From: Candidatus Poribacteria bacterium
GTDB lineage: Bacteria > Poribacteria > WGA-4E > WGA-3G
DNA length: 64,000 bases
Assembly (NCBI GenBank): GCA_965215265.1
Contig: OZ244048.1
Coordinates: forward strand, 320,001 to 384,000
Direction of reading: 5' to 3'
Part shown: positions 21,267 to 55,157 of the stretch, one piece after another
Position numbering within the stretch: position 1 is the first letter of the stretch
Layout: every line of letters begins with the position of its first letter
Made by a program: the position numbers and the translations under genes
The notes under the pieces: generated by a model
What the model saw: only the letters and a program-made list of their open reading frames with translations
What the model was told of the DNA's origin: nothing
The model's database searches: none

Positions 21267-23426
21267 CTATAATTTCTCTATTTCCCCCCCCCTTCCACTA
21301 TACTTTTGTGAAGTCTTCACGCCGTATTCTCCCGCAAGGTACTGATTCAGTTCGGACCCTAACTCCTTCAGTTTACCCTGCAACTTCTGTTTGTCAGCCG
21401 GTTTCACCGTCCCGCCCAATTCGGTTTGCTGCTGGCGAAACAGGGCAAACAGACTTTCAACGTCTTCCACGCGTGCTTGAATCCGCCCCATCGTGTCGTC
21501 AAAGTCGAACTTACCCGTGACTGCACTTTCTACCTCCTCATAAGTCGCATAGCCGACGAGTGTGTTGCCTGCCTGCACGTTAAAGTCTATGTCCGGCAGC
21601 GGTTCAATCTGTTTCACGTTCTCAAGCTGCGCCACCATTTTTAGGAAGAGACGCAGCTTGCAAATTTCGACGGCCTCGTCCATGATGTCTACACCATATA
21701 GGTTGTTGACGATGATGGACTTGAGGATAAAATAGCGGCGGTTTGGGTGCTGCTTAATCCGGTCAAGGAGTTGGCGGAAGTCCGTGTATTTACGGGAATG
21801 TTGCGATGCTTCGTCCAAGAAGGCTTGCATCCGATTTAGGCACGCCTCATAGAGCGGTTCGAGGATATTGAGCGCAGCAAATAAGAAGGCACCGGAGCCG
21901 CACGTCGGATCCAGCACAGTTAGCTGCGTCATCGCCTTCCAAAACGCACGGAGCAGCTCGGGGCCCTCACAACTCTCAATCACGTCTTGCGCGAATTGAC
22001 GAATGTTGAGGTTGTCTGTTATCAGTGCGTTGATGTCCCTGATTTCTCCGTTGGCGAGTTTGGCGCGAACGGTTTCGTAGCGTTGCCGGCGTGCGATGAC
22101 TTCTCGCCACGTTTCCACCGGCAAGGCGTACTCCGCAGGGGCCAACGTGTTCCAGGTTGTCCGTTTGGAGACATCGTCAATGCCAGCAGCGATTTCTGGC
22201 GGTAAATCCAAGTCTACCCCTTTTTTCACTGCATCGTAGAGGTAGCGTTCCGGCACGGCCTGTAGCAGCTGCCACACGGACGTGTCCCCTTCAAATGCGA
22301 TTCTACACGAACGCCGCGCCGCATCAAATAGGAACGGAAGCATCGTATTTTTGCTGATATATTCCGTTATGTCCTCTTTCGTGTAGTATGCACCCATCTG
22401 CTTCTGGTTGATGTACTTTTCAAAGATGTAACCCAGCACATCAGGGTTGATTTCGTTATCGTTTCGCAGCGGGCGCTCGTCTAGATGCCACTGGTAACGT
22501 TCAAAGAAGGTGAAAATCTGTTCAAAAGCCGTGTCGGCAATCTCAATGGTTTCCCCGTGAAGTGTCTCAATCTCGTGTTTCTGAAAGATGCCGCCGTTGA
22601 GGTATGGGATTTTTCCGAGCAAGCGGTGTATCTCTCGGCTGCGTTCCGCTTCCGGTTTCGCAAACCCTTCAAAGAAGAGCGGACAGAGGAAGTGTTTGTA
22701 GTATCTATTGGATGAGGGGGGCGCAGCAGCACTGGCGGCTTGGTTCTCTGCCAGTTTGGTGCGTAGGTAGTTATCGTCGTTATCAAGGAACCCTTTCTTC
22801 TGAATAAAATAGATGAACATCAGCCGGTTGAGCATGACGGAGGCGTACCCACGTTGCATCTCTTCATCGGGAATGCCTTTGAGGAAGTTGAGAAAGGCGG
22901 TGTGTTCCCTCTTGAAATGCTCATAAAACCGTCTGGTGACCTTCTCAACGTCGAAGCCTGCCTGAACGCGTCCAGTCACGTCTGGCAGCGTGAGTTGTTC
23001 TTCCTCCTGCAAACCAAAAGCAAGGGTTTTGAGTTTTTGGATGAGGGAGTCGCCGGATTGTGTTATCTGATACCGATGTTCCCGAGAAGCGGTGGGTTTC
23101 CCTGCCTCATGTTTAACCCACTGCCAGACTTGCGTTTTTCTTTGAGCGTCCGTGTAGATGATAAAGTGTTCATGGACAGATTTTGCGACCTGTTTTTGGA
23201 TTTTGCGGCGTGTTGTGTAATCGGGGATTTGTCCGTCAAGCGATGCGGTGGACTGAAAAACAACCAGGCCGCGTTTTTGGGCGATTGCAGTGAGTTGGTA
23301 GTCGGTTTCATCTACTGTAACGGAGAGCACTTGTGTATGATAATCCCAACCGAGTTCTTCAATAAAGATAGATTCAAATGCGGATGCTCTCAGGTATTGG
23401 CGTATTTCTGGGAGATTGATTTGCAT
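21267..23426 (-). CDS. Eco57I-like adenine methyltransferase, N-terminal part
   Basis: LNRLMFIYF, PYLNGGIF, LGYIFE, GAYYT, VLDPTCGSGAF, LYGVDI, GNTL motifs; stops just after the G9 tract. Confidence 0.9.
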   Translation of the reverse strand: MQINLPEIRQYLRASAFESIFIEELGWDYHTQVLSVTVDETDYQLTAIAQKRGLVVFQSTASLDGQIPDYTTRRKIQKQVAKSVHEHFIIYTDAQRKTQVWQWVKHEAGKPTASREHRYQITQSGDSLIQKLKTLAFGLQEEEQLTLPDVTGRVQAGFDVEKVTRRFYEHFKREHTAFLNFLKGIPDEEMQRGYASVMLNRLMFIYFIQKKGFLDNDDNYLRTKLAENQAASAAAPPSSNRYYKHFLCPLFFEGFAKPEAERSREIHRLLGKIPYLNGGIFQKHEIETLHGETIEIADTAFEQIFTFFERYQWHLDERPLRNDNEINPDVLGYIFEKYINQKQMGAYYTKEDITEYISKNTMLPFLFDAARRSCRIAFEGDTSVWQLLQAVPERYLYDAVKKGVDLDLPPEIAAGIDDVSKRTTWNTLAPAEYALPVETWREVIARRQRYETVRAKLANGEIRDINALITDNLNIRQFAQDVIESCEGPELLRAFWKAMTQLTVLDPTCGSGAFLFAALNILEPLYEACLNRMQAFLDEASQHSRKYTDFRQLLDRIKQHPNRRYFILKSIIVNNLYGVDIMDEAVEICKLRLFLKMVAQLENVKQIEPLPDIDFNVQAGNTLVGYATYEEVESAVTGKFDFDDTMGRIQARVEDVESLFALFRQQQTELGGTVKPADKQKLQGKLKELGSELNQYLAGEYGVKTSQKYSGRGGEIEKL
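21284..21292 (-). repeat. G9 homopolymer (coding strand) at the frameshift
   Basis: C9 on + strand; G10 would give one 1098-aa ORF 23426..20131. Confidence 0.9.
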
Positions 23427-50861: not shown

Positions 50862-51215
50862 TCATCCTAGTGTCTCCGCTTCAGTTAGAGGGTGCCATTC
50901 GCATCGATAAAACTCAAAATCCTCTAGTGTGGGTTCAAGGGTTGCCTTGCTAGCTAGCTCTGTTACTCGTTTCTGTAACTTCACAATTAACATCACATCC
51001 CCGATTTCCAGATCTGCCTGTTCGCGAGACACTGCAATTTCGACATTTGTCAACCCCTTGATTAGGCGAGCCGTTTCGGGATAACCGATATAACTCCGGA
51101 AGTTCGCCGCTGCATCGGCATCCTTCAACATGGTGCAAAATTCAGAACGTGAAATCTGTTTCAGGGTATATTGTCCCTCAGTAGGCATAACAGCGGCATT
51201 AAGTAATAGAATCAT
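50862..51215 (-). CDS. DUF1874 (STIV B116 / YddF / AcrIII-1-Crn2)-like protein
   Basis: 117 aa; LLN...IS..EF...SYIGYPETA.LI..L....I.VSR...L..GD..L..L..R...FEFY pattern. Confidence 0.75.
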   Translation of the reverse strand: MILLLNAAVMPTEGQYTLKQISRSEFCTMLKDADAAANFRSYIGYPETARLIKGLTNVEIAVSREQADLEIGDVMLIVKLQKRVTELASKATLEPTLEDFEFYRCEWHPLTEAETLG

Positions 51216-52277: not shown

Positions 52278-52337
52278 TAATACTTAAATGATGCTGGAAA
52301 ACAGCTTGAACACCCACTGAAAATAAGGAGATCTCTT

Positions 52338-53486
52338 TTGGCAATACAAACGCAATTCACTACTTCCGAACCCAGCGAATCCGTTGAAAACTATGAATTT
52401 GAACCCATCCAAGGCTACCCGAGGCTCAGCTGGAAAGGAAAGCGCCCGTTCCGCGCTACCCAATACTATCCCGCCCAACTCAAAGAGACACACGGCGAGA
52501 AAGTCAACGACTGGCGAAATAAAATCTATTGGGGGGATAACCTACAAGTCATGAGCCACCTGCTCAAGACATACCGCGGCAAGATGAAACTGATTTACAT
52601 AGATCCGCCGTTTGACTCGAAAGCTGACTATAAGAAAAAAATAGAGCTGAAGGGGAAAAAGGTAGAGAACGACCGCACCGCTTTTGAAGAGAAACAGTAC
52701 ACGGACATCTGGACGAATGATGAATACCTCCAATTCATGTATGAACGGTTGATTCTACTACGCGAATTGCTATCGGATAATGGGTCCATCTACCTGCATT
52801 GTGATTGGCGAATGAATAGTTATCTTAGGTTAGTGTTGGACGAAATTTTTGGCAAGGATAAATTTCGGAATGAGATTATATGGAAGAAATATTCAGGAGT
52901 AAAAAATCAATCTTCCAGAAAATTTACTACGCAGACAGATACAATTTTTTGGTATGTGAAAAGTGAGAGTGCAATTTTTAATCAACAGTACAAACCTTTA
53001 AGTGATAATTATATAAAACAAGAATATAAGTACGTAGATGCAGATGGTAGGAGATATGCAAAATTGAGAGGACGGGGTTATCAAAATAAAAAAGGGGAGA
53101 CAAGCGTAAAATATCTAGATGAAAATCCAGGGATACCAGCTACAAGTCTATGGGATGAAGATGGATTACAGTTAAACACATCTACTTCAGAAAGGATAGG
53201 CTACCCTACCCAAAAGCCTGAAGCACTTCTTGAACGTATCATCAAAGTGTCATCCAATCCCGGAGATCTTGTCTTCGACTGCTTCATGGGCAGCGGCACT
53301 ACGCAAGCGGTTGCGATGAAACTCGGCCGCCGGTTCATCGGCGCTGACATCAACCTCGGCGCCGTCGAGACTACCTCAAAACGCATCATAAATCTCGCAG
53401 CAAACATTGAACAGAACACACGTCAACAGAAAATTGACTTTGAAGCGGAAAAAATCGAAAATACCCCCCCCCTTCTTATGTGTTAA
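52338..53486 (+). CDS. Type III R-M Mod-like adenine methyltransferase, N-terminal catalytic part
   Basis: AAGGAG SD + TTG; GDNL, LIYIDPPF, FRNEIIW, YPTQKPEALLERII, DCFMGSGTT; stops just after the C9 tract. Confidence 0.92.
   Translation: MAIQTQFTTSEPSESVENYEFEPIQGYPRLSWKGKRPFRATQYYPAQLKETHGEKVNDWRNKIYWGDNLQVMSHLLKTYRGKMKLIYIDPPFDSKADYKKKIELKGKKVENDRTAFEEKQYTDIWTNDEYLQFMYERLILLRELLSDNGSIYLHCDWRMNSYLRLVLDEIFGKDKFRNEIIWKKYSGVKNQSSRKFTTQTDTIFWYVKSESAIFNQQYKPLSDNYIKQEYKYVDADGRRYAKLRGRGYQNKKGETSVKYLDENPGIPATSLWDEDGLQLNTSTSERIGYPTQKPEALLERIIKVSSNPGDLVFDCFMGSGTTQAVAMKLGRRFIGADINLGAVETTSKRIINLAANIEQNTRQQKIDFEAEKIENTPPLLMC
53464..53472 (+). repeat. C9 homopolymer at the frameshift
   Basis: C10 would give one 615-aa ORF 52338..54184. 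Confidence 0.9.
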
Positions 53487-54184
53487 GTTCTTATACAGGA
53501 TTTGAGGTGTATAACGTCAATCACTACGACGTATTCCGCAATCCTATTGAGGCAAAAGCACTCCTCATCGAGGCACTGGAAATACAGCCCATGCCTTCCA
53601 GTGCAATATACGACGGCGAAAAAGACGGACACCTCGTCAAAATCATGCCTATCAATCGCATTGCTACTCGCGCTGACATCAACGAACTCATCGCAGGATT
53701 AGATTACAAAACTTTTGAGAAACGCCAAGAACAACACCCTACCCGTCCCGTCGAAAAGTTGTTGCTCGTCTGTATGGGACATGAACCTGACCTCGCCGCC
53801 GCGTTGCAAAGTGAAGTGCCTTACAAACTTGACATAGAAGTGATGGATATCCTGCGTGACAAATCCGGGTTAGCGTTCAAACGCGAATCCGAAGCGAATA
53901 TCGTTCGTAGCAACGGCCAAGTCAGCATAGAGCAGTTCTACCCAATGAACCTGCTCGAGAAGTTAAGTCTGATGAAAGAGCACGTTGAAGACTGGCGTGA
54001 ATTGGTCGAATCGGTGAAAGTTGACTTTAACTACGACGGTGCGGTGCTGAATCCGTCGGTGGTAGATGTGCCGGAAAAAGAGGGGTGGGTCAAAGGGGCT
54101 TACCGCATCCCTAAAGACGCAGGCATAATCCGCGTAAAAATTACCGATCTGTTATCAGAATCTCTCGAAGTGACAGTGGAATGA
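53480..54184 (+). CDS. Type III Mod-like methyltransferase, C-terminal part (frameshifted)
   Basis: GFEVYNVNHY...DWRELVESV..DFNYDG...VKITDLL; frame open back to the C9 tract. Confidence 0.85.
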   Translation: MLSSYTGFEVYNVNHYDVFRNPIEAKALLIEALEIQPMPSSAIYDGEKDGHLVKIMPINRIATRADINELIAGLDYKTFEKRQEQHPTRPVEKLLLVCMGHEPDLAAALQSEVPYKLDIEVMDILRDKSGLAFKRESEANIVRSNGQVSIEQFYPMNLLEKLSLMKEHVEDWRELVESVKVDFNYDGAVLNPSVVDVPEKEGWVKGAYRIPKDAGIIRVKITDLLSESLEVTVE

Positions 54185-54272
54185 CGCGTCTATGGCGAAT
54201 TCGGCAGGTCATATTAGTTCGCTTGACACCTATAAGCTGTAAAGTTTTCATATACTCACGAAATGAGACAGT

Positions 54273-55157
54273 TTAATACAGAAATTCTATTGACAACGTT
54301 GTCAAAAATTCGTTTTCTACCTCACGATTGTAAACTTGCGCTGAGATAATCGAACCGTAGATATTGCCCAGATAGAAAATTCCCCCGATGGTTCCTAAGC
54401 TCCATCCCTTTACGGATGCGATGCCATCTCTGCGGAATCCGTCGTAAGCCTGCCACCCTGTTACCCCGACAATTAGCAAACTGGTAATTGCATCGCCGGT
54501 GCGCCCGGTGTAAAGTCTTCCGCTCCCCGGCAGCACTGTTGAAAAAAGTCCTGCCAAAAACGGGCTGCGGGTGGGAAGCCGGGTGCCCTGTTCCGCATAA
54601 TCTAGATATAACGTTGCCTTAGACCGAACCTCTGCGAGATCCGATTCTTGCAATTTCTTGAAAACCTCACTTGCCTCCGGCCACTTCTTCCGCATCAGGT
54701 AAGAGAGACCTATGAGTTGTTCTGATTCAGAGCGATATCGCACATCCACAATGTGCTGCATCGTTTCATGCAGAAATAGTTCTGACTGTTCAAACTGCTC
54801 CAGCAGAAAATAGGAGGCACCAATTTGATAGTAAGCACGGTTTCTTAGTGGACTGTCTGGGTGATTCTTTAAGAGTGCTTCAAAGGCGCGGATTGCTTGT
54901 TCTGACTCGCCCCCTAAGCGATAACAGAAAGCAATTTTATACTGAATGTGTTCACTGTCTTGGGGCTGATAAAAAAGATAGCGTTGATACTCTCCAGCGG
55001 CACGTAGATAATCACCTTCGTCGTATAGAAAATCCGCGAATCGGCGGATGTTCTCTGGAGTGTAGAGGTTAACCGACTCAGCACGCACATCCCCTTGGCT
55101 GAAACATAGGAGCATCAAGAGAAGTTTAGGCAGTACACACAGTGGGATTTTATTCAT
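54273..55157 (-). CDS. TPR protein with C-terminal TM2/DUF5683-like hydrophobic domain
   Basis: Signal peptide; FADFLY..GDY.RA..EYQR TPR; RSPFLAGLFSTVLPGSGRLYTG. Confidence 0.88.
   Translation of the reverse strand: MNKIPLCVLPKLLLMLLCFSQGDVRAESVNLYTPENIRRFADFLYDEGDYLRAAGEYQRYLFYQPQDSEHIQYKIAFCYRLGGESEQAIRAFEALLKNHPDSPLRNRAYYQIGASYFLLEQFEQSELFLHETMQHIVDVRYRSESEQLIGLSYLMRKKWPEASEVFKKLQESDLAEVRSKATLYLDYAEQGTRLPTRSPFLAGLFSTVLPGSGRLYTGRTGDAITSLLIVGVTGWQAYDGFRRDGIASVKGWSLGTIGGIFYLGNIYGSIISAQVYNREVENEFLTTLSIEFLY

Follow-up and report, generated by a model that had tools for sequence, protein, structure and literature searches.

The stretch of DNA analysed here, 64,000 nucleotides from a Candidatus Poribacteria bacterium (hereafter the window; C1:320001-384000 of genome G000, which is one 4.83-Mb contig), carries a Type III-family mod gene, the methyltransferase gene of a restriction-modification (R-M) system, that is divided by a run of nine cytosines (C9). 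Positions without a prefix are those of the window, and positions prefixed C1 are those of the contig. The nine C's occupy 53464-53472 on the plus strand, in the context AAT ACC CCC CCC CTT CTT ATG TGT TAA, and separate a 382-amino-acid (aa) open reading frame (ORF1, 52338-53486, plus strand) from a 234-aa one (ORF2, 53480-54184, plus strand). ORF1, which by the ORF list, PF01555, PADLOC and phmmer encodes an N-terminal domain, a beta-class N6/N4 methyltransferase core and a target-recognition insert, begins with a TTG codon 7 bases behind an AGGAG ribosome-binding site (52326-52330, plus strand) and ends at a TAA at 53484-53486, twelve bases past the run. This stop lies within a GTTAAGT heptamer (53482-53488, plus strand), 9 bases 3' of the run, and is overlapped by the GTG start of ORF2 (GTGTTAA). 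No Shine-Dalgarno-like sequence was found before this GTG, the 16 bases upstream consisting of the C run and pyrimidines. The frame of ORF2 is reached by the addition of one C (C10) or the loss of two (C7), and the fused product has 381 + 234 = 615 aa, with the junction reading ...TPPPSYVLSSYTGFEVY. A chorismate-lyase-like gene lies upstream of mod, and a convergent tetratricopeptide-repeat (TPR) gene (54273-55157, minus strand) lies downstream, at the place that res, the partner gene of mod, takes in relatives. The tract with its stop, the 615-aa product obtained with one extra C and the convergent TPR gene in place of an adjacent res had all been described in an earlier reading made without database searches (hereafter the sequence-only reading), and the sequence and ORF coordinates confirmed each of them.

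We then characterised the two halves of the gene. A Pfam scan placed PF01555 on residues 84-346 of ORF1 (profile positions 2-219 of 221, E 7.1e-55). Its motifs follow the beta-class order: motif IV (DPPF, 52602-52613, plus strand, from the sequence and ORF translation), then the recognition insert, then motif X and the S-adenosylmethionine-binding motif I (FMGSG, 53283-53297, plus strand, likewise). All of them lie 5' of the tract, as the sequence-only reading had it, and with every methylase motif inside the short ORF its further claim that a frame switch removes the C-terminal domain only also holds. PADLOC was divided on ORF1 (MTase_III 1.6e-67 vs MTase_II 8.4e-67). At least 7,999 relatives of ORF1 were found, the best 120 being mostly 550-670 aa long. 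For sequence and fold comparison we used P0002, a relative 82% identical to ORF1. Its best phmmer match was M.MboIIA (4.4e-23); against longer chains, phmmer returned EcoP15I Mod (4zcf_A, E 1.6e-16, query 25-223 on chain 53-264), in a match that takes in the region before motif IV, and 6k0w_B (4.7e-14). The P0002 model (predicted local distance difference test, pLDDT, 72.4; predicted template-modelling score, pTM, 0.69) gave 6k0w_B (2.2e-17), 4zcf_A (7.8e-17) and 7dsu_A as its top Foldseek hits. By sequence and fold together, the nearest solved relatives are the EcoP15I, Mbo45V and 6k0w Mod subunits, and the gene is filed as a Type III-family mod with its defining neighbour, res, missing at the locus.

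ORF2 matched no Pfam, NCBIfam or PADLOC family, NCBIfam giving partial hits far below threshold. When it was used as a query among longer proteins, 7,704 matches were obtained; the 120 best comprise methylases (417-654 aa) with 75-82% identity to it across the domain, and three of these 120 are named as Candidatus Poribacteria site-specific DNA-methyltransferases. Because longer methylases carry the domain at this level of identity, ORF2 encodes the normal C-terminus of the methylase family, and this C-terminal domain is better conserved than the N-terminal half (54-85% identical). The methylase core of the P0002 model closes with a long helix (residues 340-363), residues 366-375 have a pLDDT below 50, and the C-terminal domain starts at residue 383. 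Since the equivalent linker of P0002 is modelled with such low confidence, the C run is predicted to fall within a disordered interdomain linker. Folded alone, the C-terminal domain (pLDDT 79.8) has two parts, a predicted alpha/beta subdomain (residues 21-132) and a beta-sandwich (residues 134-234). The former gave weak nuclease-like VIA-align rows (1y88_A, Z 6.8; 2vld_B, Z 6.0), and we rejected a nuclease-like name for it as the matches are too weak (Z 6-6.8); the latter gave generic rows only (Z 6-7.4). A Foldseek search with the C-terminal domain returned no match at E 0.001 or better.

The family spans many phyla, with 85 confirmed stretches in species-representative genomes reducing to 78 loci. 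Among the 71 loci with a full upstream flank, an open frame of at least 550 aa runs through the C-terminal domain in 63, and the linker holds a G/C run in one, a Poribacteria metagenome-assembled genome (L016; G10, out of frame). A long same-strand ORF precedes mod in all 13 loci inspected, drawn from other phyla and from other Poribacteria, and in 12 of them a res-sized ORF directly follows it; in L016 a second mod comes first and then res. The upstream ORF ends with UvrD_C and PD-(D/E)XK/Cas4-like domains in 3/3 loci scanned, and ResIII was found in the downstream ORF (>820 aa) in 4/4 loci scanned, as well as in the shorter res start of L016. The L016 locus (L016:1429-5691) reads, in order, a helicase-nuclease gene, a mod split at G10 (362 + 232 aa), an intact mod (578 aa) and res, an arrangement of tandem alternative mods ahead of one res. 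A neighbourhood of UvrD-Cas4, Type III Mod and Res is described by Hudaiberdiev et al. 2017 (PMC5704561), and its members are those present in the inspected loci. The window gene belongs to a clade that elsewhere forms this UvrD-Cas4-like / Mod / Res cassette. The mod-res operons of relatives, together with the nearest solved structures, also bear out the Type III assignment made in the sequence-only reading. Unlike the described cassette, the window copy has neither neighbour: no res adjoins it, and a UvrD-Cas4 gene is absent beside both mod loci of this clade in the genome, with none found in the genome using a fragment from L018 as query.

The second of these loci bears on the claim, made in the sequence-only reading, that there is no res gene. 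This stands for the locus itself and fails for the genome. A genome search with a relative's Res found an uninterrupted gene, 77% identical, at C1:468363-470900. It was called as an 893-aa protein (C1:468348-471029) that combines a ResIII helicase with a TnsA-like nuclease end, and lies 94 kb downstream of the window mod, directly after a paralogous mod. The paralog consists of P0011 (364 aa) and a 234-aa ORF, split by a C9 run of its own at C1:467605, and likewise needs C10; it has res beside it and lacks the UvrD-Cas4 gene. By blastn, the two mods share a 5' segment of 505 bp at 91.7% identity (52380-52883, plus strand) and a 3' segment of 992 bp at 95.6% (53212-54199, plus strand); the latter includes motifs X and I, the linker with its C tract, and the C-terminal domain in full. 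Between these segments, at about 52884-53211 (plus strand), the two are unrelated, and this gap corresponds to the target-recognition region. The C-terminal domains of the two mods are 98% identical, with 5 substitutions in 234 residues. Because a paralog with so similar a C-terminal domain adjoins an intact res 94 kb away, the window mod counts as an orphan only in its position. It resembles an allele of alternative specificity that could use the same Res or swap its recognition segment with the res-linked copy by recombination. We also noted a second Type III-like locus at C1:1192738-1198843, where a res-like 927-aa frame (33-37% identical to the Res of L018) is followed by two tandem mods; both belong to a ten-copy methylase family described below, with G9 and G8 runs at 1195626 and 1197434.

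To place the C-terminal domain relative to Res, we predicted a complex of Res residues 1-760 with the 234-aa domain, each with its alignment, alongside 3 controls. The median interaction prediction score from aligned errors (ipSAE) was 0.65 for this pair vs 0.00 for the best of the 3 controls, with at least 70% contact agreement across runs and a partner pLDDT of at least 76. The ipSAE mark used here is reached by 116/157 solved complexes and 2/215 mismatched pairs, counts that apply only approximately to this pair, whose alignments were our own. On the Res side the predicted interface spans residues 583-701, on the domain side residues 59-69, 99-103 and 123-172. Alignment-invariant columns lie on both sides, among them the Y154-S163 stretch of the domain. 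Since no like domain has been solved, it seems less likely that the model reproduced a memorised complex. The prediction supports, in silico, docking of the C-terminal domain on Res.

EcoP15I offers a solved parallel. In its published description (PMC4490356), the C-terminal domain of ModA contacts Res, dimerisation runs through the N-terminal and methyltransferase domains, and Mod2 is a standalone methyltransferase. Our gene shares the layout of the EcoP15I Mod2Res1 complex (PDB 4ZCF), namely N-terminal domain, methyltransferase, target-recognition domain and C-terminal domain; this structure was the second-best Foldseek entry, over 613 columns (E 7.8e-17), and the predicted Res contact mirrors that between the ModA C-terminal domain and Res. 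By contrast, the C-terminal domain has 234 aa here, as alpha/beta and beta-sandwich parts, vs 106 aa in EcoP15I, and the contact predicted here falls behind the RecA2 domain of Res. By this analogy and the models, the 382-aa product would keep the dimerising, recognising and methylating parts and lose the predicted Res dock.

Next, we considered whether the run is genuine and whether its length varies. An assembly in one 4.83-Mb contig suggests long reads, and a homopolymer miscall therefore had to be guarded against. Seven public sequencing runs match the stretch wholly or partly, six of them sharing at least half of the sampled words, and four were compared; the shares of X3 and X9 were small or nil. 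Contigs from two runs of one study (X4 and X5) cross the tract with 0 differences, at C9 (depths 23.9 and 11.8), and in each a second contig represents the paralog, with three extra bases downstream and likewise C9. In X1, a run from a different study in which one loose end shows an Illumina adapter, C8 is found in the contig closest to this copy (depth 71.7) and C9 in a paralog-like contig (depth 77.5). X4 and X5 are possibly the source sample, so that only X1 is independent. The length of the run thus differs between samples with similar flanks, over only two lengths (C9 and C8) and two studies. As the X4 and X5 contigs repeat C9, and the Illumina contigs of X1 give C8 and C9, the C9 run is genuine and population-variable; it is not an assembly error. 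The contigs, at C9 and C8, do not show the uniform C10 that the sequence-only reading had named as counter-evidence. Two further searches added nothing: the raw-read Hi-C run X8 yielded 27 reads, all at 52769-52902 and of 90-95% likeness, with zero over the C run, and 0 matches were obtained when metagenomes were scanned for this linker with its run allowed to vary. At nine bases, the run has the length from which mononucleotide repeats are counted in phase-variable mod genes (PMC5909438).

Both halves of the gene are under purifying selection. Between the two paralogs, the ratio of non-synonymous to synonymous change (dN/dS) is 0.03 in the shared N-terminus, 0.05 from motifs X-I to the linker and 0.10 in the C-terminal domain (14.5 synonymous and 5.5 non-synonymous changes). 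Among the listed differences of the X1 strain downstream of the run, 8 of 12 are third-position changes in the downstream frame (hand count). From the low dN/dS and these third-position differences, it follows that the downstream frame was translated during the divergence of the copies, which argues against a long-dead pseudogene. The same linker carries in-frame G runs in the relatives P0033, P0134, P0147, P0174 and P0199, and out-of-frame runs occur as well, both states being present among other Poribacteria. A stop or shift in the linker is present in 10 of the 203 proteins listed, 2 of them from this genome, and Poribacteria-like assemblies contain gene calls of 217-255 aa that comprise the C-terminal domain only (75-82% identity). 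An alignment of linker DNA, in which L014 and L015 were uninformative, showed no clean insertion borders in the other rows.

The tract is one of many in this genome. Counted by length, the 4.83 Mb hold 500 G/C runs of 6 bases, 66 of 7, 44 of 8, 46 of 9, 4 of 10 and 6 of 11; because the lengths form a second peak rather than a geometric decay, the long runs exceed chance. The runs of at least 8 bases number 100 and fall into 46 clusters by flank similarity. We scanned representatives of 17 clusters with Pfam, with a single ComEC run as an 18th representative. R-M genes account for 16 clusters and 42 runs, including N6_N4 methylases, Eco57I/MmeI-type fused enzymes, a Type III mod with TypeIII_RM_meth, HsdS and an Mrr fusion. 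One R-M cluster is the ten-copy methylase family. Its C-terminal part shows 29-32% identity to the ORF2 domain, and every member has a G8 or G9 about 700 bp upstream. The flank pattern of a second methylase family was found, across 61 genomes, only in the 8 copies of this genome and one unrelated hit in G019, and gave no allele series. Within R-M genes, runs sit at 5' ends, mid-gene and in 3' linkers. The run of the window mod, which the sequence-only reading contrasted with the 5' repeats of typical mod genes, is accordingly no singular design; it is one of 42 R-M run loci distributed over all three positions.

Some of the other runs deserve mention in their own right. A family of leucine-rich-repeat (LRR) proteins, 14 copies in one cluster (C1:80858 and 13 more), mixes in-frame and out-of-frame copies and carries its C8/C9 run a few codons past an ATG with a GGAG site. 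The window contains a second 9-base G/C run at 21284-21292 (C1:341284), in a minus-strand ORF pair of 726 + 383 codons that needs +1; its cluster mates are at C1:17857 and C1:1557766, and the halves of the C1:17857 copy match MmeI_Mtase/Eco57I, as in a Type IIG/IIL-like fused restriction-methylase. A ten-copy repeat (C1:766585, C1:1416349 and 8 more) has GTTAAG 8 bases ahead of a C8-C11 run; several TTAAC/GTTAA half-sites follow the run, with short open frames only on either side. At C1:3229028, an out-of-frame C8 separates a frame of 140 codons from one of 719 codons that encodes ComEC/Competence and metallo-beta-lactamase domains, and DNA uptake may also be switchable via this run. Apart from the runs, a small minus-strand ORF two genes upstream of the window mod (50862-51212) matches the STIV B116-like family (PF08960, E 3.3e-12).

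The GTTAAGT heptamer beside the C9 run recurs next to other runs. GTTAAG, usually as GTTAAGT, lies within 26 bases 3' of the run on the C strand in 21 of the 46 clusters, where chance would give 0.17 clusters. The usual spacing is 6-17 bases after the C run, for example at 53482-53488 in the window and at C1:69544, 434253, 1605410 and 3122558. Among the shorter runs, of 5, 6 and 7 bases, the motif accompanied 6 of 3,152, 0 of 500 and 1 of 66, respectively. Of 61 related genomes, counting G000, 16 contain the pattern of C8 or more, 6-17 bases and GTTAAGT; these belong to one family and five genera, and the reversed control gave 0. Relative to the coding strand, the motif takes either orientation, depending on the gene. 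As it can be on the coding or the non-coding strand, it probably has a DNA-level role. We rejected three other accounts: a promoter on the G strand with the run as its spacer, for which the spacing would range over 14-23 bases (hand count); an off-frame stop, given that the motif is found on either coding strand and before or after the run; and a target-site duplication around GTGTTAAG, which was seen in this gene pair only. The conserved GTTAAGT next to the runs suggests that more than plain slippage may be at work.

Starting from the observed run, its polymorphism, the domain layout, the res-linked paralog and purifying selection on both halves, we favour, at a probability of roughly 0.55, a slippage-driven contingency switch of a known kind that, when off, deprives a Type III-family Mod of its Res-coupling domain only. 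Slipped-strand mispairing in replication would alter the length of the C run. With C10 or C7, the 615-aa Mod would be made, and its C-terminal domain, by the in silico prediction, would dock the Res encoded 94 kb away beside the paralogous mod. With C9, as in this assembly, or C8, as in the other population, the product would be a Mod with its catalytic and recognition parts and without the Res dock. Were the short form active, the switch would toggle restriction by this specificity, with methylation perhaps unaffected, and the locus would be one member of about 100 G/C contingency runs genome-wide. The toggling between long and short isoforms proposed in the sequence-only reading is in this respect mechanistically reasonable, in view of the linker, the predicted Res dock and the EcoP15I precedent.

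Several observations weigh against this interpretation. Neither in-frame allele (C10 or C7) was seen in the three sample sets, whose contigs hide minority variants, and here the isoform proposal falls short. The mod beside the Res partner is likewise out of frame, and both paralogs need the same +1 C. With the longest frames joined across each run, 40 of the 42 R-M runs are out of frame, the two in frame being a G8 at C1:1362474 and a C11 at C1:4693743. Of the 11 R-M clusters in which all runs are 9 bases long, 10 need exactly +1 base (one-sided binomial ~0.006, hand arithmetic), the needed length being uncertain for four clusters with a short upstream frame. This "one short" bias is real to the extent that the Illumina data at this locus can vouch for it, and it is compatible alike with a contraction-biased, mostly-off switch, with decay and with slippage expression. 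Moreover, the C-terminal domain has no likeness to that of EcoP15I detectable in sequence or fold searches, and the EcoP15I analogy is therefore functional only; it is from this analogy that the 382-aa form would be expected to fold, dimerise and methylate.

The same facts have been read in other ways. The gene might be a decaying orphan, a duplicated mod that lost its res and whose run drifted without selection for full length, leaving at most a reservoir of target-recognition domains for recombination. The lack of an adjacent res, the out-of-frame state in every sample at two lengths (C9 and C8) and the excess of out-of-frame R-M runs (40/42) fit such a history, and the mosaic of 505-bp and 992-bp shared flanks around an unrelated middle is how a recombination donor is expected to look. 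However, decay sits poorly with a dN/dS of 0.03-0.10 in both halves and a 234-codon frame intact in both copies, with the third-position bias of the X1 differences (8/12), and with an intact ribosome-binding site and start; we hold it to be unlikely, if less so than the alternatives that follow. One of these gives the heptamer the leading part: the C run and GTTAAGT would form a dedicated switch module, placed by some Poribacteria lineages in either orientation in the linkers or 5' ends of dozens of R-M and surface-protein genes, and either recognised by a trans-acting factor or read via polymerase slippage, which would explain the +1 need of runs of 9. Here, the module would uncouple methylation from restriction through loss of the Res-docking domain alone. 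We regard this as a speculative idea, a degree more doubtful than decay.

Programmed recoding would leave the DNA fixed at C9 and have RNA-polymerase slippage (+1 C) or -1 ribosomal frameshifting set a fixed ratio of short to long product. That both paralogs need the same +1, as do 10 of the 11 all-9 R-M clusters, that selection has kept the out-of-frame downstream frame, and that a 9-base homopolymer spans an RNA-DNA hybrid would suit this idea. It is harder to reconcile with the C8 of X1, which needs +2 or -1, with relatives whose run is in frame or that have no run (63/71 loci are fused), and with a GTTAAGT motif that faces either way relative to the coding strand; nor was downstream RNA structure supported as a frameshift stimulator, since the 90 bases after the run fold no better than shuffles (z -1.54; 15 of 200 shuffles equal or better). 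On balance, we give recoding a slim chance. A functional split gene is slimmer still: at C9 both pieces would be made, ORF2 by termination-reinitiation at GTGTTAA, to act as two subunits, or else a free C-terminal domain would titrate Res. The start/stop overlap, the passing of the in silico Res-binding mark by the C-terminal domain alone and the many gene calls for that domain only in Poribacteria-like assemblies are in keeping with it; the GTG has no Shine-Dalgarno-like sequence before it, the loci of other species are fused in 63 of 71 cases, and the C8 allele moves the end of ORF1 and breaks the overlap. A homopolymer miscall, finally, with a true length of C10, might be suspected from a single 4.83-Mb contig, which suggests long reads, and from observed lengths systematically one or two short of the in-frame length, but it is largely refuted by the C9 of the X4 and X5 contigs and the C8 and C9 that Illumina-based X1 gives for the two copies, and is very improbable.

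The contingency switch that we favour resembles the phase-variable Type III mods of phasevarions, of which modH, modJ and modL of H. pylori and modU of C. upsaliensis are among the examples with mononucleotide runs named in the relevant part of PMC5909438. Common to both are a Type III-family mod with a G/C run of 9 in the ORF, several such genes per genome, and allelic copies with conserved 5' and 3' parts around a variable central recognition region. Unlike in those genes, the run here lies past all methylase motifs, so that a complete methylase core and not a short N-terminal stub would be left, and the host is an uncultured sponge symbiont and not a pathogen. The scale also differs, with 42 run-bearing R-M genes here vs up to three or four per strain among those named in that part of PMC5909438. 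Among the papers listed by our literature searches, none reported such switches in Poribacteria or sponge symbionts. Campylobacter jejuni has poly-G contingency loci in genes for surface proteins and R-M systems, the Type IIG gene cj0031 among them; its tens of G/C runs measure 8-11 bases, most often 9. By comparison, the present genome has about three times as many runs, which are mostly in R-M genes and almost all out of frame in the consensus, and we know of no counterpart in Campylobacter to the GTTAAGT-like companion found here in nearly half of the flank clusters. In the Type I system NgoAV of Neisseria gonorrhoeae, a poly-G run in hsdS reportedly yields a truncated specificity subunit with altered specificity. 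This is similar to our proposal in that a homopolymer toggles two working R-M forms rather than on and off; it differs in R-M type and subunit, and in that specificity changes there, whereas loss of nuclease coupling is proposed here.

As the two mods share flanks and the predicted Res dock, differ in their recognition domains and have one res between them, their arrangement points to a common nuclease that interchangeable methylases, each switched on its own, would serve. The 42 run-bearing R-M genes in one uncultured sponge symbiont would, to our knowledge, form the largest known stochastic repertoire for defence or epigenetic control. If the short form methylates, restriction by one specificity could be toggled without exposing the chromosome. 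This would provide the bacterium with a safe way to try or to retire specificities, unlike the all-or-none 5' switches of mod genes.

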